In this document: positions 1-37,340 of the stretch, one piece after another
Layout of the letters: each line of letters begins with the position of its first letter
Numbering within the stretch: the stretch's first letter is position 1
UHGV virus genome: UHGV-1403306
Reading direction: 5' to 3' (one strand)
Length of the DNA: 37,340 bases
Source: a virus
The notes under the pieces: generated by a model
Seen by the model: only the letters and a program-made list of their open reading frames with translations
Databases searched by the model: none
Told to the model about the DNA's origin: nothing
Translations under genes and position numbers: made by a program

Positions 1-600
1 ATTTTTTTTTGCAATAATTTGCACTTTCCATGGCCATTCTAATTGACTGCAAGGAACAGTACCGCGATATTCAATCATTTTAGAATTTGTTATTTCTATA
101 TCATCAGGGATGGTAATTCCAAATGGTAAATCTACCGTCTTAAATGTTAGTGATACTTCGTATAGAAGGCCTACATCACTAAAGCCTTGAAAATCATAAT
201 TGATTTCTCCGTCTAATAACACTTTATATCTATAATGATATTGACGTTGCTTATCAACTCTCAACATATCGAAACCTTGCTTTTCTCCAGGTCGCTCATA
301 ACCATATAAGCTTTGATTAGTATACATTTTAGTTATATAAAATGGTTCTGTGTCTGCAAAAGTACCATTCAATTTATCTTTCATGTACTCATCTTGAAGT
401 TCATTTTCTACATAATAATAACCACTCACAGTGATTTTTTTCTCACTATGAGTGGCTCCCAAAAATAGACTTCGGTTAGTTCCGTCTATTTTTTTAGTAT
501 TAATTTCAACAATAGAATTAGTGGAATTAATATCTATCACAAGGACACCTAGGGAGGACATCCTTGTAGATAAGTTTTCCTTTTCTATTTTTAAGTCCAT
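1..600 (-). CDS. dit: Distal tail protein Dit, N-terminal part; the gene wraps across the window ends and continues at 37086..37340
   Basis: RBS GAGGAGGacact then ATG at 600-598, 4 nt after the TMP stop. Translation MDLKIEKENLSTRMSSLGVLVIDINSTNSIVEINTKKIDG... stays open to coordinate 1 and continues in frame at 37340. It sits at the Dit position between TMP and Tal. Confidence 0.6.
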   Translation of the reverse strand, partial: MDLKIEKENLSTRMSSLGVLVIDINSTNSIVEINTKKIDGTNRSLFLGATHSEKKITVSGYYYVENELQDEYMKDKLNGTFADTEPFYITKMYTNQSLYGYERPGEKQGFDMLRVDKQRQYHYRYKVLLDGEINYDFQGFSDVGLLYEVSLTFKTVDLPFGITIPDDIEITNSKMIEYRGTVPCSQLEWPWKVQIIAKKN

Positions 601-611
601 AGTGTCCTCCT

Positions 612-3600
612 CTATTTCTTGTTAACCAAATTAACTTTATTTTGATTTCTTGCTTCTTTTTGTTTAACAATTGTGTATATTTTATCTCCAACAAGTTCGG
701 TATGAACTTCAAATACTGGTTCTTGTAATTGACTAGTTTTAACTTCTTCGCTTAATTCATTCATAGATGAAGAAAGCTTATTAGAGACATTTCTAGTATC
801 CGCCGTTAAAACAGAATTTGCTTCATATTCTTGTGATTTTATTGATGTTGCATATGCTAACGCTTGTCTATCAACTTGCTTTTGCATTCTTGACATGCCG
901 TTAACTAAACCCATCCCAACAAATCCCCCAATTTTATCGGTAACACGTGATGGCGAATGAATATCCAGTGCTTTCCTCATAGTACGGGCTACGTTACTAG
1001 CTATATTACTAGCAGTTGCGTAAATAGAACCCGCAGAATTTGCTAAACCATTTCTCAAACCTATACCTGCATTATAACCGATATTAGAAAGCGTTGAAGT
1101 CAATCCACTAAAAATGGAGTTTATTCGACTCGTGGAAGAAATCATTATGCTTGTCATTGAATTCATGCTATTCATAACGGCACTATTCATTCTATTCATA
1201 CCATTTTGAACATTATTTGCCATTGAATTGAATGCTTGAGTATTTGCAGAATTTATCCTACTGAATCCCCCGTTAATAGTACTAACAACACTATTCATTG
1301 TACCTGTCACATTTGACTTCATTGAGTTCATGGACTTCGTTACATTGTTTGACATCTGTGAAATGTCTTGCGAAGATTTATTATTAATATTTTGTGTATT
1401 ATTTGATACATTTTGAAACATTTGGTTAGAGGCACTAGAAGCTTGTTGGGTAGCTTGATTCATATTAGTGCCAACAGCATTCGCAGTACCAGAGGTAGCC
1501 TGATTAACATTAGATAAAATACTATTATAGTCACTAGAGACACCATTTAGTGCACTATTAGACTCTTTTGTTGCAGCATTTGCTGCTTTAGTTGAATTTG
1601 AACTTACTACACTATTAAGGTTATTCATCGTTCCTGATACATTTGTAGCTAGTAGATTATAGTTTGAAGACGTACCATCTTTAGCTGCATTAGAAGCATT
1701 AATTGCATTGTTTGAGGCTTGTGTACTCAAATTACCTACATTTAAATTCATGTTGTTCATTGAATTAGCAACATTTGAACTTGCTTGTCCATAAGATGAA
1801 CTCAAATTTGTAGCAGTAGTAGTAGCATCATTTGATACTTTTGAGCTTGTTTCAGATGACTTACCCGTTATTGTGTTCCATAAATTTGAAAACCCATTTT
1901 TAATACCATCCCAAGCTCCTTTTAAAACATTAGGAATAGCCTCTAAAATAGCACCAGCAAGAGCTTTAATAATATCCCACCCAGCAGCAATAATTTGTGG
2001 TAGCATCTGGATTACCGTGCCAATCAACGTCATAATGATTTGTATTCCCGAAGAAACGATGTTTGGCAAATTCTCAACAATACCATTAACCAAGGCCATA
2101 ATAATTTGCATTGCTGCGTCTAGAATCATAGGTAAGTTTTCTACAATAAAATTACATAATGAATTTATAATTTGGACTGCTCCATCTAAAAGCTTAGGTA
2201 TATTATCCATTAAACCTTGGATTAATGTTAGAATCGCGTTTAATGCGACAGGTAAAATTTGTGGCAATAATTGAGTAAGACCATCAATTAAATTCTGAAG
2301 AATCTGAATACCCGTATCTATAATTTGAGGTAGATTTTCCATTACAGAATTAACAAACGAATCCAAGATTTTTTTCACTGATTCAACTATTTTTGGTATA
2401 TTTTGAATGATTCCTTTAACTATATTCAGCAAAAGTTCCATTCCCATTTTTAATAATTCAGGCAATGCACTTGCTATGGAGCTCAAAAATGAAGTAATAA
2501 CTTCTAACGCTGAATTTATAAGAGACGGTGCATTTTGCCCCACACCTTGTACAAGACTTCCAATAATTTTCATACCTGAATCTATGATTATTGGAATCAT
2601 TGTAGATATAGCACTAGCTAGTTTAGCAATTAATTCAGTGCCACTTTGCATAAGTTGTGGCAATTGTGAGGTAATACCATTAACAAGATTAGTTATAATT
2701 TCTGGGCCTTTTGTAGTTACCGTCTTTAATAATTTGTCAATTTGTGCTCCAAATTGATTATTGATTAGTCCCAATCCAGCTATAACTAATCCTAATATAG
2801 CTGCAGGTCCTATAGCTGATAAAGCTACTTGCATGATAGTTCCCATTGCAGAAGTCATGCCACCTAAGGCTCCCATACCAACAGAACTTGCCATGGATAA
2901 GCTACTTCCTATTTTAGGAATTAAACCTATCAAACCTGTTAATCCAGAACTAAACATTTTGAACGGTCCGCTTATCATACCTCCTAATATTCCTGAAAAT
3001 GCTGAAAATCCGCTTGAAAGAGATGCAATTGCAGGAACTGCTTTACTGACTACTAGCGCGCTTCCCAATACAGCAGCTATAGGTAATAGTCCTTGAATAG
3101 CACCTTTTAAAGCATCAATACTTTTTTTAGACAAATCAGTGCCATTGATAAAATGGTTTAAAACATTTGTAGCAACATCTACTGCTGCAGATATTTTATC
3201 CATATTAAAATCACCAATTTTATCTGTTAATTTGCTGACTGCTTCTATCCCTACTTGAGACAGTTGATCAAAAGCCGGTTGTAATTTATTGGTGATTGTT
3301 TCCTTTAAGCCATCCATTGCTTGACCGACAGTTTTATATTCGGTAGCCATTTTTGAAAACGTTTCGTTTGTACCAGTTTTAGTTATTGCATCAAAGAAAT
3401 CTTGAGTAGCAATTTTCCCATCTTGAACCGCAGTCACCATTTCAGAGGTTGACATGCCCATAGTTTTAGCAACAGCTGCAATACCCGCAGGAGTTTGTTC
3501 TAACATCAATTTAAAATCTTGCCATTGAACCATCGGTTTAGCAGCCATTTGTGTAGCTTGTTGACTTAGCGTTGTCATCGCTTGTGTCGGATTTTCAGCT

Positions 3601-4526
3601 GCCGCAGCTAATCCACCAAAACCCATAACCAATTTGTCAGTATTTTTTATTCCTACAGCTGCTAATTGACTATATGTAGTAGCCATTTCAGAAGCAGAAT
3701 AAATTGTTTTAGTGGCAAAATCCTGTAGCTCTTTTTTTACAGATGCTATTTCATCTTTTCCTTTACCAATATTTTCCATATTAGCATTGAAAGTTTTCCA
3801 TGTAGCTGAGCCTTGGTTCAAGTCACCTATAATTTCTTTAAATCCGCTAGAAAGTGCTGATATGCCTTTTTGAGCTACCGCGTATGCTGCACCAATACCT
3901 ATGATTTTTTTTACTAAATCATCTGTTGCTGATCCTGCTTTATTGGTTCCTGAAACCATCTTATTTAGTGCGTTAGACGCTTTTGATCCAGCACTATTAA
4001 ACGCTCCAGTTAATTTCGAACCTATATTAGTTCCCAAAGTAGTAATTTTTGAACTTATTTCACTAGCACTTGATCCAACAGCTTTAAATGCACTTTTAAA
4101 AGGCTGTGGTATTTTAGAAGCAACTGTCGAAAATGCTTTACCAATTATTGATGTTTGTTGTGATAGTCCAGCTCCCATTTCTTTAGCTGAACTTACAACC
4201 GCATTCTTGGCAGCTGACATCCCTTTTTTAATTGGTTGTGGTATTTTTTCGCCGATTCCAGCAATTACACGTTGAATACCGCCGCCAGCTTTTTCAAATA
4301 ATGCAACAGTTTGCGGTAAAACTTTAGAAACGCTATTTAGCATCGGATCAGCTAACTTACTCATAATTTGACCGACTTTTTGAGTAGTACTCATAGATCC
4401 GCTTTGTAATATGTTAGCAACATCATTCATAGTTTTATTCGCTATAGATGAAACTTTATTCATTGCAGCATTATATTGCGACAAATCAGCACCGATAACA
4501 GCGTTAATAGCACCTTCAAAAGCCAT
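612..4526 (-). CDS. tmp: Tail tape measure protein (TP901-family core region, tandem ~20-aa IxxNLPxI repeats, Asn/Ser-rich segment, C-terminal HSPSR motif)
   Basis: 1304-aa ORF with RBS GGAGGTGAGTAAATG. It contains the TP901-type TMP core (ASEMATTYSQLAAVG...QWQDFKLMLEQ). Hydrophobic stretches and position after the G/T chaperones fit a TMP. Confidence 0.9.
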   Translation of the reverse strand: MAFEGAINAVIGADLSQYNAAMNKVSSIANKTMNDVANILQSGSMSTTQKVGQIMSKLADPMLNSVSKVLPQTVALFEKAGGGIQRVIAGIGEKIPQPIKKGMSAAKNAVVSSAKEMGAGLSQQTSIIGKAFSTVASKIPQPFKSAFKAVGSSASEISSKITTLGTNIGSKLTGAFNSAGSKASNALNKMVSGTNKAGSATDDLVKKIIGIGAAYAVAQKGISALSSGFKEIIGDLNQGSATWKTFNANMENIGKGKDEIASVKKELQDFATKTIYSASEMATTYSQLAAVGIKNTDKLVMGFGGLAAAAENPTQAMTTLSQQATQMAAKPMVQWQDFKLMLEQTPAGIAAVAKTMGMSTSEMVTAVQDGKIATQDFFDAITKTGTNETFSKMATEYKTVGQAMDGLKETITNKLQPAFDQLSQVGIEAVSKLTDKIGDFNMDKISAAVDVATNVLNHFINGTDLSKKSIDALKGAIQGLLPIAAVLGSALVVSKAVPAIASLSSGFSAFSGILGGMISGPFKMFSSGLTGLIGLIPKIGSSLSMASSVGMGALGGMTSAMGTIMQVALSAIGPAAILGLVIAGLGLINNQFGAQIDKLLKTVTTKGPEIITNLVNGITSQLPQLMQSGTELIAKLASAISTMIPIIIDSGMKIIGSLVQGVGQNAPSLINSALEVITSFLSSIASALPELLKMGMELLLNIVKGIIQNIPKIVESVKKILDSFVNSVMENLPQIIDTGIQILQNLIDGLTQLLPQILPVALNAILTLIQGLMDNIPKLLDGAVQIINSLCNFIVENLPMILDAAMQIIMALVNGIVENLPNIVSSGIQIIMTLIGTVIQMLPQIIAAGWDIIKALAGAILEAIPNVLKGAWDGIKNGFSNLWNTITGKSSETSSKVSNDATTTATNLSSSYGQASSNVANSMNNMNLNVGNLSTQASNNAINASNAAKDGTSSNYNLLATNVSGTMNNLNSVVSSNSTKAANAATKESNSALNGVSSDYNSILSNVNQATSGTANAVGTNMNQATQQASSASNQMFQNVSNNTQNINNKSSQDISQMSNNVTKSMNSMKSNVTGTMNSVVSTINGGFSRINSANTQAFNSMANNVQNGMNRMNSAVMNSMNSMTSIMISSTSRINSIFSGLTSTLSNIGYNAGIGLRNGLANSAGSIYATASNIASNVARTMRKALDIHSPSRVTDKIGGFVGMGLVNGMSRMQKQVDRQALAYATSIKSQEYEANSVLTADTRNVSNKLSSSMNELSEEVKTSQLQEPVFEVHTELVGDKIYTIVKQKEARNQNKVNLVNKK

Positions 4527-4530
4527 TTAC

Positions 4531-4845
4531 TCACCTCCACTTTTTATTTTTGAAATAGTTCATCACTTCTTTTGCCTTTTCCACACGATTGTATGTTTCT
4601 TCCTTTTCGTTTGTCGTAGCAAAAATAGATTTTATTTTGCGTTCAATTTTTTCTTTATCAAATACTTTTTTTATTTTTGGCTTCTTTGCATTCAAAACAT
4701 ATCTTAAAGTAAACGCATAATGGGCTTTTTGTTCTTGTTCATCTACACTTTTCAAAGCTAATCCTTCTAAAATCGCTTCTAACTCCCACTTATAACAAGA
4801 CATAATTAATGGAATATCCACTAATCCTTGCCTAGCACAATTCAC
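4531..4845 (-). CDS. Tail assembly chaperone gpT-like extension ORF, in the -1 frame relative to the upstream gpG-like ORF (candidate G-T frameshift product)
   Basis: 104-aa ORF directly follows and overlaps the stop of 4845..5321 in the -1 frame. It lies immediately upstream of TMP, the canonical siphovirus G/GT arrangement. No slippery heptamer was positively identified. Confidence 0.4.
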   Translation of the reverse strand: MNCARQGLVDIPLIMSCYKWELEAILEGLALKSVDEQEQKAHYAFTLRYVLNAKKPKIKKVFDKEKIERKIKSIFATTNEKEETYNRVEKAKEVMNYFKNKKWR

Positions 4846-5321
4846 TATGAGATTTCTTTCTTGATTCGATCTGCTAAATCTTTGACCGCTTTTGCTTGTT
4901 GCTCTGGATTTTGAATCTCTTCGGTCGGTTGTTGGCTCTTCAAGTAATCTGCTGCTTTCTCTAGATTGTTGATATATTTCTTCAATTTCTTCACGAAAAA
5001 ACCAGAATCCAACATTTCTTGTTTAAGTGTTTCAAATACCATGCTGTATCCTTCTTCTTCATCTTCAAAAGTTTCCACAAAATCCTGAACAGACTTCGCA
5101 ATGTCTTCATCTGTTACTTTATCTTTTGAAGCCAGCTTGATAATATCAAAAAGCGCATCATCATCTTCTTCTAGAACTTTTACAAAAAGAACACCTGCGC
5201 CATCATTTTGTGAGTTACCTTGAGCATCTTTTGTACCTAGCTTTTTATTAGCTTTAAATAACATTCCATAATTAAACTTAATTTCTAATTGTTTCTCTTT
5301 TAATTTAACTGCAAATGACAT
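4845..5321 (-). CDS. Tail assembly chaperone (gpG-like), acidic
   Basis: 158-aa acidic ORF with strong RBS AGGAGGAAATAATATATG. It is the first of two ORFs between MTP and TMP, the conserved chaperone position. Confidence 0.5.
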   Translation of the reverse strand: MSFAVKLKEKQLEIKFNYGMLFKANKKLGTKDAQGNSQNDGAGVLFVKVLEEDDDALFDIIKLASKDKVTDEDIAKSVQDFVETFEDEEEGYSMVFETLKQEMLDSGFFVKKLKKYINNLEKAADYLKSQQPTEEIQNPEQQAKAVKDLADRIKKEIS

Positions 5322-6208
5322 ATATTATTTCCTCCTGTTTTAGCCATTTTTATAGCTTCTATATATTTTATAGTTGCTTTATCTTTAGCCATATTATCTA
5401 ACCTATCTTCAAAAGGACTAGTATTAACATATTTTCCTTTAAAAAATAAATCTTTATCTTTTTCAGTTACACCTGCATTGTGTAATATTTTTGTTTCGTA
5501 CCATTTATTGACTGGATCAGTTGGCCAGCAAAAATTTAATTCTTCATCGATTTTCGGGCCTATGTTAAAAACTAACATATTCCATAATTGAGCCCACATT
5601 TCCGCAGTCCAAATTTGAATATTACTGTCTTGGTAATTTAAATACTTGAATAAACGTATTGAATCACAATAAACCTTTTCCCAATATTCTTTTTTCGGAT
5701 TGGTTATAACCCATTGAGCCCCACCTGAATTACTATTAATTGTTTCAAGTGATTCAAGATTGACACCAACTATACCGGACATCTCCTGCAATATTTTGTC
5801 TCCATTTTTGCAGCTACGTATATAATCAATATTTAAATAGCCATTACAATCTGAACAGTACCAAACATCCTCTTTCAAATTAAACTTGTTGAAATCAATC
5901 AGTTCTCTAAAAATCACATCTGAGTCCATATAGAAGTATGTTTCTTTTTCTCTACTAGGGTCTTCTTTTAAATATTGCCACCACAAATAAGGCTTAATCG
6001 AAGGGATATAGCTTTTATCCCTTCGATTATCCTCATAAGTATGCACTGTTACACCATACTCTTCTTTAAAATACACAGGAATTGATGTATCATGTTTCGA
6101 AAAAAGCAATACGATGTCTTCAATTCCTACTTTTTTTAAATTAGTAAGACACACTTCTAATTCCCATTTAAATCTTTGAATCGCAGGCTGACATAATAGG
6201 TATTTCAT
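5300..6208 (-). CDS. Extra ORF between the major tail protein and the chaperones: Cys/Trp-rich enzyme-like protein with a hhhDxDhhh motif (YFYMDSDVIF); candidate GT-A-type glycosyltransferase
   Basis: 302-aa ORF with a Rossmann-like N-terminus (YLLC...IVLLFSKHD), a DSD motif near residues 92-94, and ~10 Trp and many Cys. It breaks the usual MTP-G-T-TMP synteny. Its neighbours carry poly-Thr tails. Confidence 0.35.
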   Translation of the reverse strand: MKYLLCQPAIQRFKWELEVCLTNLKKVGIEDIVLLFSKHDTSIPVYFKEEYGVTVHTYEDNRRDKSYIPSIKPYLWWQYLKEDPSREKETYFYMDSDVIFRELIDFNKFNLKEDVWYCSDCNGYLNIDYIRSCKNGDKILQEMSGIVGVNLESLETINSNSGGAQWVITNPKKEYWEKVYCDSIRLFKYLNYQDSNIQIWTAEMWAQLWNMLVFNIGPKIDEELNFCWPTDPVNKWYETKILHNAGVTEKDKDLFFKGKYVNTSPFEDRLDNMAKDKATIKYIEAIKMAKTGGNNICHLQLN

Positions 6209-6213
6209 TTTAA

Positions 6214-6843
6214 TTACCTTTGAGTTGTCGTTGTGGTTGTTGTAGGTCTTGTAGTGGTTGTTGTTGTTCCATTATCAATATTGCTATAATCACCAGTAGT
6301 TTCTCCTGGGCGTTGGAATTGATACAAACTTTCGACCATTGCAACGTCTTCATCTGACAAAGGAAATGTTCCGTCTTGCAATTTCCCTACAATATTTAAT
6401 GTGTAGCTAATTTCAACTAAATCTTCTCCTTCAGCATATTCTAATTCGTCAGGGATACCATAACCAAATTTAGCTGGATAAGCTTTAGTTCCGGCTCCTT
6501 CTTCCGTTGCAAGAGTATCGTCAACAACAACTCGCCATACTTTAACAGAATGTCCATTCTTTTTGGCTTCTTCAATAACATCAATTGATTCATCATCGGG
6601 AGCAAAGTATTGTGTCAATTCAATACTATGTTCATCAGTTGACTTTAAAATTATACGCCCCATTTTTGTTTGTTCATCGATGTTGTCACCGCCAATAGTT
6701 GTAGTACCATCTGTTTGAAATGCAGGCAAGAGAGCTGGAGATCCAATTGGTACTTGTGTGCTTTGAATAAAGTACCAAACACGGTTTCCTCTAATAGGTG
6801 TTCCTTGGAATTTTTTAATTCTGTTATTTACTGTTTCTGGCAT
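6214..6843 (-). CDS. Major tail protein with a C-terminal poly-Thr tail (…GTTTTTTRPTTTTTTTQR)
   Basis: 209-aa ORF placed after the head-tail joining genes and before the chaperones and TMP. The C-terminal 19 aa are TTTTTTRPTTTTTTTQR, coded at 6217-6273. Confidence 0.6.
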   Translation of the reverse strand: MPETVNNRIKKFQGTPIRGNRVWYFIQSTQVPIGSPALLPAFQTDGTTTIGGDNIDEQTKMGRIILKSTDEHSIELTQYFAPDDESIDVIEEAKKNGHSVKVWRVVVDDTLATEEGAGTKAYPAKFGYGIPDELEYAEGEDLVEISYTLNIVGKLQDGTFPLSDEDVAMVESLYQFQRPGETTGDYSNIDNGTTTTTTRPTTTTTTTQR

Positions 6844-7560: not shown

Positions 7561-7835
7561 GTTAATATTACAACTGTTGAATTGCGATGAAACTTAACAT
7601 CAAAAATATTTTTAGAAATACCGTCTATATTAATTTCATCAAAGAAGAAATATCCCTGTAAATGAACTTTAAGTGCATTCTTATTGTATTTTCCAAAGAA
7701 AGCTATTTGTTCATCAAAAGAAATATTATGGATACTACAAGGTACTGTTCTAACTTCTTTTGAAATGGCTTCTTCTCCTAAATACCCTTCAGTAGTAATA
7801 TTCTTAACTATTTTACAACGATGGTTATAAATCAT
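7557..7835 (-). CDS. Head closure / head-tail adaptor protein
   Basis: 92-aa ORF between the gp6-like connector and the gp10-like protein. Assigned by synteny. Confidence 0.4.
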   Translation of the reverse strand: MIYNHRCKIVKNITTEGYLGEEAISKEVRTVPCSIHNISFDEQIAFFGKYNKNALKVHLQGYFFFDEINIDGISKNIFDVKFHRNSTVVILT

Positions 7836-8215
7836 GGTAAAAACCTCGCAATTCCTTTACCAGCTCTAATTTCAGGCTTGGTATACTCGTCTAAAATGTT
7901 CAAATATTCATCCAAATAACTCTTTTCCCAAGTAAAAGAACGACCTTCTTCGCTGTCAGAACTTGTCCCTTCACTATTTCTTTTGTTGAAACGTTTAATT
8001 GATACATCTCTCAATATATAGTTCAAACTATCAGGTACAGCATCGTACTTATCTGTTCCATTTTTTTGAGCATATTGATTCAAGACAGATAAAATACGTT
8101 CTTCACTGTCTTGAATCACTAATGTTAACAATTCATCTTGGAGTTCGTCAGAAATGCCTAACAAAACTTTGATTTCCTTCAGACGATCACCGTATTCTTT
8201 TTCTGTCTTTCCCAT
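7832..8215 (-). CDS. Head-tail connector protein (gp6-like / Phage_connect_1)
   Basis: 127-aa ORF directly after the capsid gene. The …LGISDELQDELLTLVIQDSEERILSVLNQYA… pattern is typical of gp6-like connectors. Confidence 0.5.
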   Translation of the reverse strand: MGKTEKEYGDRLKEIKVLLGISDELQDELLTLVIQDSEERILSVLNQYAQKNGTDKYDAVPDSLNYILRDVSIKRFNKRNSEGTSSDSEEGRSFTWEKSYLDEYLNILDEYTKPEIRAGKGIARFLP

Positions 8216-8229
8216 ATCAGAAACCTACT

Positions 8230-9207
8230 TTACCCTTGTGTCGTAGTAGTCGTTGTTGTTGGTTTTGTCGTTGTCGTTGTTGTTTCACCACTAATTGTTG
8301 CTTCTACTACACCTTCTGGAATTTCAGGGAATAATGTTAAAGCATTCATAAACAATGATTCAAATGTTGCATTTCGTAGAGTACGTCCACGAGTCGCTGA
8401 AATAAAACCAGTTTCATCAACAAAGTCCACAAAAATATCACCTAAATCAGATGCCTTCATATCCAAGTATGCTAATACGATATTGTCAACGGCGGTAGAA
8501 TAAACCTTTCCTTCTGGGATTGCGTTTAATACAATAACGTTTGTTGCACCTAGAAAGTTTTTCAATAAGGTCATACCAAATACATTAGATGCATCTGCTA
8601 AGACTTTTGTATCCCCTAAGTAGGTTGCTACATCCATAGGATTTACAAAGGAAACAAATTGAGCGCCATCAAACTCTTCGAATGTACTTAGTTTCCCCCA
8701 TGATTGTGCTAACGCTTTTTGTAACCCTTCAGCTGGAATTTTAGTAGGAGCTGTCCCTAAAAAATTAACAAATTGCGTTTTAATTCCACCTTGAATTTGG
8801 CGCAATAATTTTTCGTCAGATTGATCAATCGCAATAGATGCTCCATGACGAGCAATTGCTTCAGCAGTTACTGCACGGCGCCATTTATTAAATGTTACTG
8901 TAAATGATTTTCCTTTAGCTCGAGTTACTTTGGATAAAGGAATATCATCGCCTTCCGCAACATTTCCATCTTTTAATGACGTTGTCCATTTGTACATTTG
9001 AATTTTCATATCTTTAGATAAAGGTTCTAACCGTGTTACACCTAATAACTCTAATAATTCTTTGATGCCTTTCTCAAAACGATTCACAAAATCAATGGAT
9101 TTAATTTCTCCTAAATCGTCCATTTTTGTAAGGTCTGGTTCTGCCGCAAATAGTTGCAAATCCATTTTTAATAAACGTTCTTTATTAGTTTTTGACATAT
9201 TTTTCAT
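8230..9207 (-). CDS. Major capsid protein with a C-terminal poly-Thr tail (…GETTTTTTKPTTTTTTTQG)
   Basis: 325-aa ORF after the scaffold gene. The N-terminus LKMDLQLFAAEP resembles that of the scaffold. The C-terminal TTTTTTKPTTTTTTTQG is coded at 8233-8289. Confidence 0.75.
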   Translation of the reverse strand: MKNMSKTNKERLLKMDLQLFAAEPDLTKMDDLGEIKSIDFVNRFEKGIKELLELLGVTRLEPLSKDMKIQMYKWTTSLKDGNVAEGDDIPLSKVTRAKGKSFTVTFNKWRRAVTAEAIARHGASIAIDQSDEKLLRQIQGGIKTQFVNFLGTAPTKIPAEGLQKALAQSWGKLSTFEEFDGAQFVSFVNPMDVATYLGDTKVLADASNVFGMTLLKNFLGATNVIVLNAIPEGKVYSTAVDNIVLAYLDMKASDLGDIFVDFVDETGFISATRGRTLRNATFESLFMNALTLFPEIPEGVVEATISGETTTTTTKPTTTTTTTQG

Positions 9208-9219
9208 AAGTTATTCCTC

Positions 9220-9879
9220 CTAGAATAAATCTCTATTTTGAGCAATCATTCTTTGACGCTCTTTAGAGTCTTTAATTTGCATAATTTCAGCTTTAGTCAT
9301 TTGACCACCGTTATTGCCTACTCGTGTCTTATTTTTGCTAGCAAGGCGCTCGTTCACCTTTGCTTCTACAGCTTTATCCCATTCATCACGAAATGCCTTT
9401 ACATCTTCCAGAATTTCTTCAGCTGTTTCTCCGGTAATTCTATGGGCAAAATCAGAAGGCATACCTTCGGCTTTTAACTGATTTCCTTTTTCAACGAACA
9501 GTTGCTGTTTTTGGAACTCAGCCTTTTGTTTTTCAAACTCTTCTTTTTCTTTATCAAGAATAGCTTGTTGTCGCTCTTTTTCTGAAAGTTTCGCTAAACG
9601 AGCGGCTTCATTCTTTTGTTCTTCTAAATCTTTTTGCCAACGTGATTTTTTACTTTTGATAATCTCATCAACATCTTTATCGTCTTTTAATCCGAACTTT
9701 TCTTTAATTGAAGTCAGCTGTTCTTCATCTAGTTCATCGAGATTCAATGATTTTTGTTCATCTTCATTTTGTTGCTGATGATTATCTCCTCCACCTGAAC
9801 TATTTCCATTATCTGCAGCAAAAAATTGTAATTGCATTGGTAATAAATTACATGTTTTCATTTGACTTTCTCCTTCCAT
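9220..9879 (-). CDS. Capsid scaffolding protein; likely true start is the Met at 9861 (MKTCNLLPMQLQFFAADNG)
   Basis: Coiled-coil, charged ORF with the N-terminal MQLQFFA motif typical of Gram-positive phage scaffolds. RBS GGAAGGAG lies 8 nt before the internal ATG at 9861. Confidence 0.65.
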   Translation of the reverse strand: MEGESQMKTCNLLPMQLQFFAADNGNSSGGGDNHQQQNEDEQKSLNLDELDEEQLTSIKEKFGLKDDKDVDEIIKSKKSRWQKDLEEQKNEAARLAKLSEKERQQAILDKEKEEFEKQKAEFQKQQLFVEKGNQLKAEGMPSDFAHRITGETAEEILEDVKAFRDEWDKAVEAKVNERLASKNKTRVGNNGGQMTKAEIMQIKDSKERQRMIAQNRDLF

Positions 9880-9957
9880 AGCTTTTATTGAGAATCAATG
9901 CTTGCTCATTTCCGTAGCTTTTTTTGTCATCCACGCCTGGACAAAATAAAAAGCCGT

Positions 9958-10305
9958 TTAAAACGACTCAACTTCTAATTCTTTGTAAATGTTTAATAAT
10001 TTAGGAAACTGAATAGCAATCCAATCAACGATTTCTTCATTTCTTGGCCATTCTGCGTTATTGTCTAATCCCGATTCAAATAAAATAGCATGGATAATTT
10101 CATGGCGTATGGTTCTAGCTTCATATATATCAATTTCTTGAAAATTATCTGGATCTCCGTTATCTAACTGATTAATAAAAATTTCTTTGGTCGTAAAATC
10201 AGTGACACCGTCTGCACCGCGCATAAAAGGCTTGTCTGCTTCTGTTGTCTCTTTATAAATTGTGTATTCTACGCCTAATACATTAACTTTTGCTTTTTCT
10301 TTCAT
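9958..10305 (-). CDS. Hypothetical protein with an HExxH motif (RHEIIHAILFESG) in the head module
   Basis: 115-aa ORF between the Mu-F-like and scaffold genes. A zincin-like HEIIH motif is the only recognisable feature. Confidence 0.4.
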   Translation of the reverse strand: MKEKAKVNVLGVEYTIYKETTEADKPFMRGADGVTDFTTKEIFINQLDNGDPDNFQEIDIYEARTIRHEIIHAILFESGLDNNAEWPRNEEIVDWIAIQFPKLLNIYKELEVESF

Positions 10306-18857: not shown

Positions 18858-19298
18858 TTACAACATCAAATCCCCAAGAAAAGCTTTTTTCATTTCCTTA
18901 TAGATGGTTAGTTCATTTTCTGCTGTCGCTATTTCATCCGTGATATGATCCATCATCCGAACAAAGGCTTTTTGGGTTTCTCGATTGAATAACTCTATTG
19001 GAAAATTACCAATTTCCTTTTCTTGTATATTGATACCTGTTGCATACTTTGCAATAAATTTGTCTACATTTCTTTGTAGAATTAAATTGAAATACTTAGG
19101 CTCGATGCCATTTTGAGGAATAATCACAACTTCCTTTGTTGGTACTTCCCTAGGATATTCTAGAAAATCTATTTGGCCTTTCGTAGCCGATATTTGAATG
19201 GTTGATGTTCCAGCAGGATAAATGTATCCTGCTTTTGCCCTTCCAAATTCTGCAACATCTTCTAATTTGACACGTTCAAAGTTATCAAAATCAATCAT
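18858..19298 (-). CDS. Type I R-M specificity-subunit-like protein with a single target-recognition domain (half-HsdS)
   Basis: 146 aa. The N-terminus …VKLEDVAEFGRAKAGYIYPAGTSTIQISATKGQ matches the conserved start of HsdS TRDs. Its start overlaps the MTase stop (ATGA). Confidence 0.55.
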   Translation of the reverse strand: MIDFDNFERVKLEDVAEFGRAKAGYIYPAGTSTIQISATKGQIDFLEYPREVPTKEVVIIPQNGIEPKYFNLILQRNVDKFIAKYATGINIQEKEIGNFPIELFNRETQKAFVRMMDHITDEIATAENELTIYKEMKKAFLGDLML

Positions 19299-20611
19299 AA
19301 TAGGCTCAATTGCTCCCCTTCCGTCGGTTCTGCTCTCTTTATTGGTCGTTTTGGTTTTTGACTGTCCTTATACCCAACATGTTCCGAAAAGAATGAAGCA
19401 AACTCTTTTATTTGTCTATCAGCTTCTGGCGTAGTCCCAACTAAATCATTCATCATTTTGGCTAGTTCGATATTATTCTTTGCAATCTCTTGCTCTGTTT
19501 GTTTCATTTCTGCCATTATTTCAGATAGTGGCTTTACAGGTTCTGGTTCAAAAGTATCAACATAACGAGGTATGTTTAGATTAAAGTCATTTTCTTTCAA
19601 TTCTTCGATAGTAACTACACTGCTAAACTTATCAACTGCTTTTCTTGATTGGAACACTTCTAAAATTTTAGCAACATGTTCGTCTTCTAAAACATTCCAA
19701 GCCTTTTCCTTTTTAAATTCCTTGCTGGCATCAATGAATAAAATATCTTTATTCAATCGGTTCTTTTTTAAAACTAGAAGAACCGTCGGAATATCAGTAT
19801 TCATAAATGCTTTTGCAGGTAGTCCAATAACAGCATCTAGCAGATTCTTTTCAATAAGTTTCTTGCGAATCTTTTCTTCTGCAGCACCTCGAAACAAAAC
19901 GCCGTGCGGTAAAATAATAGACATTATGCCATTATCTTCCAATTGGTGTACACCCTGTAGTAGAAATGCGTAATCTGATTTTGATTTAGGAGCTAAGACA
20001 CCATAATCCGAAAAACGCTCTTGCTCTAAATACTCTTTTAATGGATTCCAAGGGAGCGAGTAAGGTGGATTCATGATGACCGTTTCCGATTTATTCGTTG
20101 GTACTTCGTCAACAATTTCAATAGAGCTAAACTCAGTTGATTTTGTTAATTTGTATATTGTTTTAAACTCACGACTTAATGAATCACCATGCAGAACTAC
20201 GGCATTTATATTTCTGATTGCTAAATTAAACAAGAGAAATGGCAATGCACGATCTGAAAACTCTTCACAATGAAACTGTGCATCAGGATTTTCTGCATAT
20301 CGTTTAATTGTTAAACCGCCAGTTCCTGCACAGATGTCTGCATTGGAACGAGTTGCCCCAAGAACTCCACTGGCAACCCGAATGATTCCATCTGGTGTAA
20401 AATCTTGCTTCTTGCCTTTTCGGTCTGAATGTTCCGCTTGAAAATATTCTGTGAACCAATCAAATGATAGGTCTTGTTCTTCTTTTAAAAAGTTGGTAAA
20501 TAGTAGTTCTCGTTCGCTTGGACTACTTAATATTTCAATCAATTTATAGGAAGCATGAAAGCTTTCATCAACACCTAGCAGTTCATTTATTTTTTCTGTT
20601 GTTAGTTTCAT
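19295..20611 (-). CDS. N6-adenine DNA methyltransferase, HsdM-like (motif I DICAGTGG, motif IV NPPY)
   Basis: 438 aa. AdoMet motif DICAGTGGL and catalytic MNPPYS are present. It is translationally coupled to the HsdS-like ORF. No R subunit is in the replicon. Confidence 0.85.
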   Translation of the reverse strand: MKLTTEKINELLGVDESFHASYKLIEILSSPSERELLFTNFLKEEQDLSFDWFTEYFQAEHSDRKGKKQDFTPDGIIRVASGVLGATRSNADICAGTGGLTIKRYAENPDAQFHCEEFSDRALPFLLFNLAIRNINAVVLHGDSLSREFKTIYKLTKSTEFSSIEIVDEVPTNKSETVIMNPPYSLPWNPLKEYLEQERFSDYGVLAPKSKSDYAFLLQGVHQLEDNGIMSIILPHGVLFRGAAEEKIRKKLIEKNLLDAVIGLPAKAFMNTDIPTVLLVLKKNRLNKDILFIDASKEFKKEKAWNVLEDEHVAKILEVFQSRKAVDKFSSVVTIEELKENDFNLNIPRYVDTFEPEPVKPLSEIMAEMKQTEQEIAKNNIELAKMMNDLVGTTPEADRQIKEFASFFSEHVGYKDSQKPKRPIKRAEPTEGEQLSLL

Positions 20612-20663
20612 CGTTTTTAAGGAGCAAAAAGCTTTTTAATGCGGCCGCAAACCTCCGCTCCTT
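20612..20663 (-). promoter_or_regulatory. Conserved hairpin leader of the N6-MTase gene (7-bp IR AAGGAGC/GCTCCTT, 31-nt loop with GCGGCCGC and AAAAAGCTTTTT palindromes)
   Basis: The inverted repeat 20619-20625 / 20657-20663 ends exactly 7 nt from the ATG. A near-identical element precedes the C5-MTase gene. Confidence 0.5.
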
Positions 20664-20664
20664 T

Positions 20665-21408
20665 CTATTTATTTTTCTCTAAAACTTTTTTAAATATGTC
20701 ATCCACTAATTTTTCTGGAATATTTGATCGTTCATTATAGCTTTTGGAAAAATTGCCCCAGGCAATTTCTTGTTTAATAACTTTATTTTTCAATCCCAAA
20801 TGAATATTACTGGCAAATTTCGTAGGCTTCTGTAATGGATAATCATAATTGTTATACTTGGTTAAATTTTTAAATGGTAGTTTAAAATTCAAGACATCTT
20901 CAATATATTCCCAAATTTTACCATTAGCCGGGTTCTCAATAATGAAATATCTGGGTTGGTACTTTTTTATAATTTTTATAGTATTAAAAACCGTTAACTC
21001 TCCATTCACTCTTTTTAAAAATTGTCGTTCATAAACATAATTAGTATCTTCGTAATCTTTTGTGGTTCTTATAGTAAACGGGCTTGGTAATATCTGTGGC
21101 GCAAATAAATTATCTGTTACATCTTCTCTTTTCCAACATGCATTCCCATTTTTCATTGCACTAGCTACTGACCAGCTTTCACATGGTGGGCTTGCAATGA
21201 TTAAATCTGGTTTTGGTAATTTGTCTAAAACTTTGAATAATTTATTATCATTAAACATATAAGAATAGTCCGCTAAATTCAGATGAATAAAATGGTCATT
21301 CTTATTTTCAATATCCAAACCTATGCTGTATATTTCTATATCTTCAAACTTTTGTGCAGAACGTTTATAACATCCGTTCCCACTATCAAATAGTGCCCAT
21401 ACTATCAT
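20665..21408 (-). CDS. Compact DNA (cytosine-5)-methyltransferase-like protein (motif I FDSGNG, PC motif SPPCE, ENV-like IIENP)
   Basis: 247 aa. Motifs I, IV (PCE in place of PCQ) and VI are recognisable in the right order. There is no obvious TRD or C-terminal motifs IX-X. Confidence 0.55.
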   Translation of the reverse strand: MIVWALFDSGNGCYKRSAQKFEDIEIYSIGLDIENKNDHFIHLNLADYSYMFNDNKLFKVLDKLPKPDLIIASPPCESWSVASAMKNGNACWKREDVTDNLFAPQILPSPFTIRTTKDYEDTNYVYERQFLKRVNGELTVFNTIKIIKKYQPRYFIIENPANGKIWEYIEDVLNFKLPFKNLTKYNNYDYPLQKPTKFASNIHLGLKNKVIKQEIAWGNFSKSYNERSNIPEKLVDDIFKKVLEKNK

Positions 21409-37085: not shown

Positions 37086-37340
37086 TTATCTATATAAGTC
37101 AACTTTATTCAATATATTTATTTCTACTTCACCAATGTTAAAAGATGTAGAAAACGGTATAAAACCAACCTCATTTGGCTTTAAAATAAAATATTCAATA
37201 TTTGTCTGATCATTAATATTTAAACCATTAAGAGTGAAAGATGTTCCTTCTAACAAAAATTTATCGCCGGATAAAATATTTCTTTTACCAACATACTTAA
37301 ACTCTCGTTCATCAATAGATAATTTAAATTCAGCCCCTAA
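37086..37340 (-). CDS. dit: Distal tail protein Dit, C-terminal part (continuation of 1..600 across the linearisation point)
   Basis: Reading the minus strand from 37340 in the frame set by codon phase at coordinate 1 gives LGAEFKLSIDEREFKYVGKRNILSGDKFLLEGTSFTLNGLNINDQTNIEYFILKPNEVGFIPFSTSFNIGEVEINILNKVDLYR, then TAA at 37088-37086. The full gene is 285 aa. Confidence 0.6.
   Translation of the reverse strand, partial: LGAEFKLSIDEREFKYVGKRNILSGDKFLLEGTSFTLNGLNINDQTNIEYFILKPNEVGFIPFSTSFNIGEVEINILNKVDLYR

Follow-up and report, generated by a model that had tools for sequence, protein, structure and literature searches.

A candidate glycosyltransferase gene co-inherited with poly-threonine tags on virion proteins in phages of Bacillota

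Introduction

What does an enzyme-like gene do inside the tail module of a phage, next to structural genes whose products end in long runs of threonine? The question is raised by an open reading frame (ORF) in the UHGV virus genome UHGV-1403306, a stretch of DNA of 37,340 nucleotides that we will refer to as "the window". A first-pass annotation, made from the letters alone, had proposed that this ORF encodes a virion-glycosylating transferase. That hypothesis is supported computationally by the fold of the product and by the phyletic pattern of the gene, the activity itself being predicted only; phages in which the gene and the tags are paired are thus predicted, and probably rightly, to coat their own particles with sugar.

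Genomic context

The 4.8 kb surrounding the ORF are 100% identical to Enterococcus phage 1_EfsPF36 (CP124927.1); their identity to phiFL1A/B/C and phiFL2A/B, temperate phages of E. faecalis in the genus Phifelvirus, is 93%. The phage genome is present in circularly permuted form: a 291-codon open frame, probably encoding the distal tail protein, runs from the end of the window into its start. The late genes lie on the minus strand in the order terminase, portal, minor head protein, scaffold, major capsid protein (MCP), connector/tail-completion proteins, major tail protein (MTP), the ORF, chaperone segments and tape measure. The features of this region referred to below are:

8230..9207, minus strand: major capsid protein, MCP (phrog_544, E 6e-70)
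6214..6843, minus strand: major tail protein, MTP (tail tube), SPP1 gp17.1-like (PF06199, Phage_tail_2; phrog_238; 39.9% identity to SPP1 gp17.1)
5300..6208, minus strand: candidate virion-protein O-glycosyltransferase, 302 aa, ATG start (predicted GT-A fold; PHROG 4417)
4845..5321, minus strand: tail assembly chaperone, gpG-like (PF12363, Phage_TAC_12; phrog_183)
4531..4845, minus strand: downstream chaperone segment, gpT-like (phrog_2567; the phrog_183 profile is also matched weakly, at its positions 197-279 of 305)
612..4526, minus strand: tape measure protein, 1304-aa ORF (counterpart, phiFL1A gp54)

The candidate transferase ORF starts 5 nt past the MTP stop codon, and its 3' end overlaps the start of the gpG-like gene by the 22 nt given in the first-pass annotation. 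In relatives devoid of the gene the chaperone directly follows the MTP, so the ORF is an insertion into the standard order; both the coordinates and the gene order of these relatives agree with the earlier description of a 302-aa frame breaking the usual tail synteny directly after the MTP. The same description had placed the ORF between the two threonine-tagged genes, which has to be corrected: it is situated downstream of both (MCP ... MTP, ORF).

In the nearly identical phiFL2A, ArpU-dependent expression has been measured for DNA-packaging, capsid-assembly and lysis genes, and a start site has been mapped upstream of terS (PMC3753634). As the ORF lies inside a late cluster of the phiFL2A type, its late co-expression with the proposed substrates is likely, a prediction made from the position in the cluster. 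The phiFL2A record carries a 1-nt frameshift in the transferase gene, and this phage still forms plaques; should the frameshift be genuine, the phage can do without the enzyme under laboratory conditions. No other sugar-related function was found encoded in the window or in phiFL1A, and thus a single type of sugar, taken from the host nucleotide-sugar pool, is the simplest expectation.

Sequence family, predicted fold and active site

The richness in Trp and Cys that had first drawn attention to the ORF product is borne out by its composition (3.6% and 2.6%, respectively, whereas the 12 remaining structural ORFs have 0.6% and 0.3%). The protein is matched over its full length by the profile of PHROG 4417, whose listed function is unknown (E 7.3e-146, residues 1-290 on positions 1-292 of 293). 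No Pfam family matched the window protein at E <= 1, and PDB sequence searches with the ORF and with profiles A1 and A2 produced chance-level matches only. The family comprises 1051 clusters at 90% identity in a word-indexed search and 866 cluster representatives at 50% identity in an exhaustive one, and 77 phage records are retrieved by tblastn with the window protein at E <= 1e-5. Hosts of the phages bearing the gene together with a tag include Enterococcus, Lactobacillus, Lactococcus, Staphylococcus, Listeria, Clostridium and halophilic bacilli, and the gene is also found in phages classified in Herelleviridae.

The AlphaFold (AF2) model of the ORF product (pLDDT 94.3, pTM 0.90) consists of a single Rossmann-like alpha/beta/alpha domain with a central mixed sheet, and contains the N-terminal beta-alpha-beta arrangement (E2-8, H11-27, E32-37) that the first-pass annotation had expected. 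Its best structural match is GlyE, followed by the Skp1 alpha-galactosyltransferase Gat1 (15.4), LgtC (15.3) and glycogenin (15.2), and then by WbbM, LARGE1 and the catalytic domain of UGGT (14.2-15.1); clostridial and Legionella toxins are also among the GT-A fold neighbours, and sugar-nucleotide pyrophosphorylases, which share the fold, reach a score of about 10 only. Foldseek searches against the PDB and the BFVD viral models agree with these GT-A neighbours. The model thus falls among the GT-A glycosyltransferases instead of adopting a non-transferase fold. In the comparison with GT-A families that had been suggested as a check, AlphaFold and Foldseek return the GT-A fold; no curated glycosyltransferase profile is matched by sequence, and hhalign against GT8 proteins stays at a probability of 9%.

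The segment YFYMDSDVIF, in which a DxD motif at the GT-A position had been recognised, corresponds to residues 91-100 at the end of strand 90-93 of the model, D95-S-D97 following this strand. Two sites of the gene are of interest in this respect:

5918..5926, minus strand: codons of D95-S96-D97, DxD motif after strand 90-93, predicted to bind metal and nucleotide sugar
5480..5482, minus strand: codon of H243, candidate third metal ligand within the H-N-A-G ... F-x-K-G motif, by analogy with the DxD...H sites of GT8

In an alignment of 48 relatives reaching down to 26% identity, Y67, D97, G163, W200, M204, H243, G246 and K257 are invariant, and D95, A164, Q165 and W205 are conserved in at least 90%. 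H243 sits in strand 241-243, and the invariant H243-N-A-G ... F255-x-K257 of the C-terminal strand differs in spacing from the H-x-x-G-x-x-K-P-W of GT8; by analogy with GT8, H243 is a candidate third metal ligand. We read the ORF product as a predicted soluble, cytoplasmic, metal-dependent GT-A transferase.

Two other assignments were considered for the protein and rejected. A structural or tail-assembly role is argued against by the fold and by the conserved acidic and His residues, and a membrane-bound polysaccharide transferase by the lack of a membrane-spanning hydrophobic segment in the window protein.

Sequence identity to the GT8-type fold neighbours is 9-14%, and none of the 48 relatives matches the PF01501 (Glyco_transf_8) profile. 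Hhalign against E. coli WaaJ/WaaO (GT8) gives a weak, local match (probability 9%, 73 columns), which nonetheless pairs FYMDSDVIF with LYLDADVVC, that is, DxD with DxD. Because PF01501 is unmatched and the hhalign probability is so low, we describe the protein as GT8-like by fold but place it outside GT8, in a sequence family of its own. Sub-threshold matches to PF23452 (HPAT, plant hydroxyproline O-arabinosyltransferase) appear in 3 of the 48 relatives (best E 1.3e-4), the window protein itself being unmatched; they hint, from sequence, at a distant link to peptide O-glycosyltransferases and at nothing beyond.

Poly-threonine tags of the capsid and tail proteins

The threonine tags that had been noted on both the MCP and the MTP are confirmed in their sequences. 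The MCP C-terminus reads ...GETTTTTTKPTTTTTTTQG and that of the MTP ...NGTTTTTTRPTTTTTTTQR, both tags being 17 residues long, and among the window ORFs of at least 80 aa runs of at least 5 Thr occur in these two proteins only:

8233..8283, minus strand: MCP C-terminal tag TTTTTTKPTTTTTTTQG, predicted acceptor (from sequence)
6217..6267, minus strand: MTP C-terminal tag TTTTTTRPTTTTTTTQR, predicted acceptor (from sequence; mixed Thr codons; absent from the orthologues of phages without the gene)

The tags are written in mixed Thr codons, with synonymous-site differences between MCP and MTP, which argues that the tag peptide is under selection. An origin of the tags as products of DNA slippage was rejected on the same grounds.

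Orthologues of the two proteins in phages without the transferase gene lack the tag. The MTPs of Streptococcus prophages (57-60% identical) and of L. plantarum phages share the end of the body and stop tagless, and the Streptococcus MCP orthologues end ...EIPEGVVEATIEA and a few further residues, also tagless. In terms of records, 42 from Streptococcus phages and 14 from Bacillus phages contain this MTP, and none of them is among the 77 that hold the gene. Other relatives without the gene display an Ig-like Big_2 domain at the same C-terminus; in one locus (L232), the MCP bears a Big_2 domain where the window MCP has its tag. The site of the tag is thus one otherwise used for a displayed decoration domain.

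Co-inheritance of gene and tag

The strongest result of this work is the near-perfect co-inheritance and adjacency of the enzyme gene and the tags across unrelated virion proteins. It was observed in 90 gene-carrying loci, of which 80 are IMG/VR contigs and the others the window and annotated phage records, many closely related prophages being included. All 90 have a Thr-rich C-terminal tail on an ORF of the same strand, a run of at least 5 Thr falls within the last 40 residues of some ORF in 88 of them, and the tagged gene is at most 100 nt away from the transferase gene in 84. The two loci devoid of a 5-Thr run belong to the most distant homologues, the Lactobacillus myophages SAC12B and LP65 (34% and 27% identity), whose neighbouring genes end in TTV[KA]P or TTTETQTQTQ repeats. 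Homologues are therefore not widespread in phages lacking Thr tags (88 of the 90 loci have poly-Thr and two have Thr-rich repeats), and this outcome favours the proposal of the first-pass annotation, which had named a wide spread in tagless phages as evidence against it. Grouped by similarity, the tagged proteins make up 22 families between which no resemblance could be detected; these include several kinds of MCP and MTP, the phiCTP1 portal and small FN3-type decoration proteins, as well as the prohead protease/scaffold proteins of SA2, VPE25 and 1706.

The association also holds within a single lineage of tail proteins. With the tail protein of Lactobacillus phage Bassarid, which lacks the gene, as probe, 74 loci of one MTP lineage were classified as follows:

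Gene present, tag present: 36 loci
Gene present, tag absent: 1 locus
Gene absent, tag present: 2 loci
Gene absent, tag absent: 35 loci

Fisher's test on this table gives p = 3e-17, a value uncorrected for relatedness. The three exceptions are each explained: a contig edge (L230, in which the contig ends 454 nt upstream of the MTP), a frameshifted pair (L288, with both genes affected), and a module swap (L232, with an orphan MTP tag and no transferase, its head module having been replaced by the one with the Big_2-bearing MCP mentioned above).

In the reverse direction, IMG/VR was scanned for seven consecutive ACN codons, and the first 80 of 120 loci were considered as uncentred fragments. Thr runs internal to proteins of unrelated environmental viruses account for the majority of the matches, which makes this a weak test, usable for enrichment and adjacency only. 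The gene is present in 3 of these first 80 loci, each time directly abutting the poly-Thr ORF, and the background of the family is about 0.02% of contigs. Several fragments have C-terminal poly-Thr ORFs and no gene within the fragment (L098, L102, L141, L151, L154, L164 and L169); such tags may be served by other enzymes, or by none.

Proposed mechanism and alternative explanations

We consider it likely that the ORF product binds a metal and a nucleotide sugar and attaches O-linked sugar to the poly-Thr tags of both MCP and MTP while particles are being assembled in the cytoplasm, generating a mucin-like coat; catalysis, the acceptor role of the tags and direct initiation on Thr are the predicted elements. 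The enzyme would be synthesised from the late morphogenesis operon alongside the capsid and tail-tube subunits; D95 and D97, probably together with H243, would bind a divalent metal as well as a nucleotide sugar drawn from the pool of the host, and the sugar would be moved onto the hydroxyls of the C-terminal tags, its configuration probably being retained on transfer, by analogy with the nearest folds. The resulting virion would present a mucin-like glycan brush on both head and tail. The biological role of this brush could be shielding, solubility or adhesion, the last one being suggested because Ig-like Big_2 domains fill the same C-terminal sites in the relatives without the enzyme.

The nearest folds also bear on how the first sugar might be attached. 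GlyE and Gat1 extend existing glycans and do not start them, so that direct initiation on Thr by the phage enzyme is not assured by this kinship. The first sugar on the poly-Thr tags might come from a host enzyme, in the way that GtfA/GtfB start the glycans of serine-rich repeat adhesins, the phage enzyme acting as an extender only. This is a variant of the same idea of tag glycosylation, and we find it unlikely: the gene and its tag are found in phages of many genera, each of which would require a host initiator acting on foreign cytoplasmic proteins, and direct glycosylation of protein side chains is known from other GT-A neighbours, namely glycogenin and the toxins of clostridia and Legionella.

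A different substrate has also to be weighed, since prophage GT-A enzymes altering wall glycopolymers are well known. The enzyme might modify the host surface (teichoic acid, the Epa polysaccharide or some other glycopolymer) and so serve lysogenic conversion or the exclusion of superinfecting phages, as in the prophage-encoded glycopolymer modifications by S. aureus TarP and in the O-antigen glucosylation of Salmonella and Shigella, the tags being unrelated linkers or spacers. The polysaccharide enzymes LgtC and WbbM, present among the fold neighbours, would be in line with it. However, the gene is on the structural strand inside the late structural operon, not at a lysogeny or moron position, it occurs in phages classified in Herelleviridae, and its product has no membrane segment; furthermore, the distribution of 36, 35, 2 and 1 loci in the MTP lineage and the adjacency to the tagged genes would be left unexplained, and altogether we judge a host-surface target to be very improbable. 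The co-inheritance with the tags is left equally unexplained if the acceptor of the sugar is phage DNA or a small molecule, or if the protein is a nucleotidyltransferase and not a glycosyltransferase, for which we see barely any likelihood. Least of all do we expect a catalytically dead protein that would bind the tags in the manner of an assembly factor or a chaperone: the gene does adjoin those of the tail assembly chaperones, but the invariance of D97, H243, G163, G246 and K257 and the conservation of D95 in at least 90% over deep divergence are typical of a working active site, and such a protein would not account for the co-inheritance either.

Within tag glycosylation as the preferred reading, a broader proposal can be advanced, although tentatively and with rather less conviction than the mechanism itself. 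PHROG 4417 and the poly-Thr tail may form a self-contained, portable cassette, in which the short tag alone would be sufficient for recognition. Phages of Bacillota would have grafted this cassette repeatedly onto virion proteins that are unrelated to one another (capsid, tail tube, portal, protease/scaffold and FN3 decoration proteins), and would thereby have built a mucin-like coat where others use Ig-like decoration domains.

Relationship with known systems

Phage-encoded glycosyltransferases that modify capsid and tail-tube subunits and shield the particle from antibodies are described for mycobacteriophages (Che8 gp110, Corndog gp38, Myrna; Freeman et al., 2023, Cell Host Microbe 31:1216, as summarised in PMC12363180), the closest precedent and the only phage system of this kind found in the literature searched; two essential transferases are described for it, and methyltransferases are mentioned alongside. 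The capsid and tail-tube subunits that are targets there are the predicted targets here, and the Ser/Thr-rich C-terminal extensions of the Che8-type system resemble the 17-residue poly-Thr tags of MCP and MTP. The glycosylation target sites of the mycobacteriophages are reportedly also C-terminal. The two systems differ in their hosts, the phages named in that summary being actinobacteriophages whereas Bacillota are the hosts here, and in that a single enzyme, homopolymeric Thr tags and an enzyme gene abutting the tagged gene are found in the present case. Mycobacterium phages are absent from the 77 phage records matching the window protein by tblastn (E <= 1e-5), so that this search shows no sequence relationship with their transferases. 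The configuration, which the first-pass annotation had regarded as new, is so in part: the concept of phage-encoded capsid and tail-tube glycosylation has its precedent in the mycobacteriophages (PMC12363180), while novelty appears to lie in the enzyme family, in the tag and in the breadth of their occurrence, the homopolymeric tags, the one-gene arrangement, the adjacency and the spread over Bacillota being undescribed in the literature searched. In that literature, most subscription journals lying outside its coverage, neither poly-Thr tags nor the PHROG 4417 gene family were found described for Bacillota phages, and glycoprotein staining or mass shifts were not found reported for them either.

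Retaining GT-A enzymes of GT8 type (GlyE, Gat1, LgtC, glycogenin, the catalytic domain of UGGT) share with the window protein the fold, a DxD that comes after strand four and, with a different spacing of the surrounding motif, a conserved His of a C-terminal strand, and several enzymes of this type act on cytoplasmic proteins. They are unlike it in their N-terminal nucleotide-binding motif, the place of which is taken by C-Q-P-A in the window protein, and the Pfam GT8 model does not match the window protein. Cytoplasmic O-glycosylation of long, low-complexity Ser/Thr-rich segments is known from the serine-rich repeat adhesins of streptococci and staphylococci (PMC6973325). That pathway (GtfA/GtfB, then GlyE and others) resembles the proposed one in being a Gram-positive cytoplasmic O-glycosylation and in including GlyE, the best structural match; it concerns surface adhesins, accessory Sec export and several sequential enzymes, whereas virion proteins, short C-terminal tags and a single enzyme are concerned here. 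On the other hand, Ig-like Big_2/FN3 decoration domains (e.g., SPP1 gp17.1*) occupy the same C-terminal display site on homologous MCPs and MTPs, presumably exposed at the surface, but are folded domains needing no partner enzyme, unlike the low-complexity tag that would be modified here.

Significance

If the proposed reading holds, heads and tails are sugar-coated in many phages that infect Enterococcus, Staphylococcus, Listeria, Lactobacillus, Lactococcus and Clostridium, medically relevant phages among them, and the enzyme responsible is currently annotated as hypothetical, for instance in VPE25 and in the Sextaecvirus SA2. Virion glycans alter antibody recognition in mycobacteriophages (PMC12363180), and could likewise influence how therapeutic or dairy phages are neutralised and cleared, how they adhere to mucus and how stable they are, with relevance for phage therapy. 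A new family of protein O-glycosyltransferases would also be defined, with the 866 representatives mentioned above. If the proposal of a portable cassette holds as well, it would be a founding member of such a family, and one 300-aa enzyme together with a 17-residue tag would constitute a ready-made, genetically encoded glyco-tag tool. Some distant relatives of the window protein are fused to a second glycosyltransferase-like domain, to a methyltransferase domain or to a radical-SAM domain, and these fusions fit a role in glycan building.

Matching Tag Ends on the Major Capsid and Major Tail Proteins

Within one phage, the two or three residues that follow the final Thr run tend to agree between the major capsid protein (MCP) and the major tail protein (MTP), as in the pairs QA/QA, KKV/KKV, KKA/KKA, HHD/HHD and SHA/SHA. 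Such a match was found in 26 of the 47 non-identical sets, as against 19% in random pairs. The nucleotide sequences behind these ends were compared in the following loci:

E. faecium prophage contigs L059 and L067, 3' ends of the MCP and MTP genes; tag-end comparison, also made in L013 and L003

The two genes share an identical DNA sequence over the 30 nt that precede the stop codon in L059 and L067, and this identity indicates gene conversion between the two tags. In L013 and in the window the tag ends differ at synonymous sites, a pattern that indicates selection on the tag peptide.

An MTP tag is also found in a mosaic phage from which the transferase gene is absent:

L232, 7429-8547 and 10001-10651, MCP and MTP loci

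Its MCP bears the Ig-like domain Big_2, and its MTP, despite the missing transferase gene, ends TTTTTTVAPTTTTTSHA. This orphan tag is presumably a remnant of head-module exchange, and the poly-Thr tag and Big_2 appear to be interchangeable at the same C-terminal sites.

Thr-Rich Tags and Transferase Homologues in Other Loci

Two further loci carry Thr-rich ends in other arrangements:

Staphylococcus phage SA2 (L085), 19117-19713 and 19658-19930, tail protein gene and an ORF in another frame overlapping its 3' end
IMG/VR contig 3300034152_000419 (L098), 5731-6324, 6334-6528 and 7780-8355 (reverse-complement coordinates), minus strand, three poly-Thr ORFs

The overlapping ORF of SA2 encodes about 55 further residues, nearly all Thr or Ser, and translation might enter it through a programmed frameshift, for which SPP1 gp17.1* offers a model; if so, a minority of the tail subunits would carry a long mucin-like tail. 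On L098, 12-17 consecutive Thr stand directly at the stop codon in each of the three neighbouring ORFs, and the 13 kb examined of this 77 kb contig contain no homologue of PHROG 4417, the family of the transferase; either the enzyme is encoded elsewhere on the contig, or these tags are served by another enzyme.

One homologue lies in a locus that lacks a phage-like appearance:

L292 (ENA metagenome contig, GC 31%), 3239-4276 and 8001-10292, locus of a fused transferase homologue

The fused protein (763 aa) is accompanied by a C39-peptidase ABC exporter, a hexapeptide acyltransferase, a GT25/LicD protein and a nucleotidyltransferase. The locus also encodes a protein with Thr-rich repeats of the TTTPH type, which looks as if it carried a putative double-glycine leader (...NILGG). 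Secreted bacterial proteins may be among the targets of the transferase family as well.

The Transferase Gene of phiFL2A

The gene was compared between two phages:

phiFL2A (NC_013643.1), L001 6001-6907, transferase gene
phiFL1A, L290 25916-26824, its counterpart

The phiFL2A record has a T6 run where phiFL1A has T5, and the one extra T, which splits the gene, is the sole difference in the compared stretch besides a one-base gap at the extreme end of the alignment. Either the record contains a sequencing error or the phage is a natural knockout. phiFL2A forms plaques, with a titre of 1.3e7 PFU/ml (PMC3753634), and the enzyme is therefore dispensable for plaque formation if the frameshift is real.

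Genome Form and Early-Region Methylases

One open frame spans the junction of the window's two ends:

37089-37340 joined to 1-621, minus strand, open frame of 291 codons

It probably encodes the distal tail protein, the one after the tape measure gene. Since this frame continues across the ends and a terminal repeat is absent, the window represents a circularly permuted phage genome and not a prophage with flanks.

The early region contains:

19295-20611, minus strand, N6 DNA methylase
18858-19298, minus strand, short type I specificity-domain ORF adjoining the N6 DNA methylase
within 18858-21408, minus strand, ORF of 247 aa whose C5 cytosine methylase domain is only fragmentary

The genes of 18858-21408 are likely orphan anti-restriction methylases.
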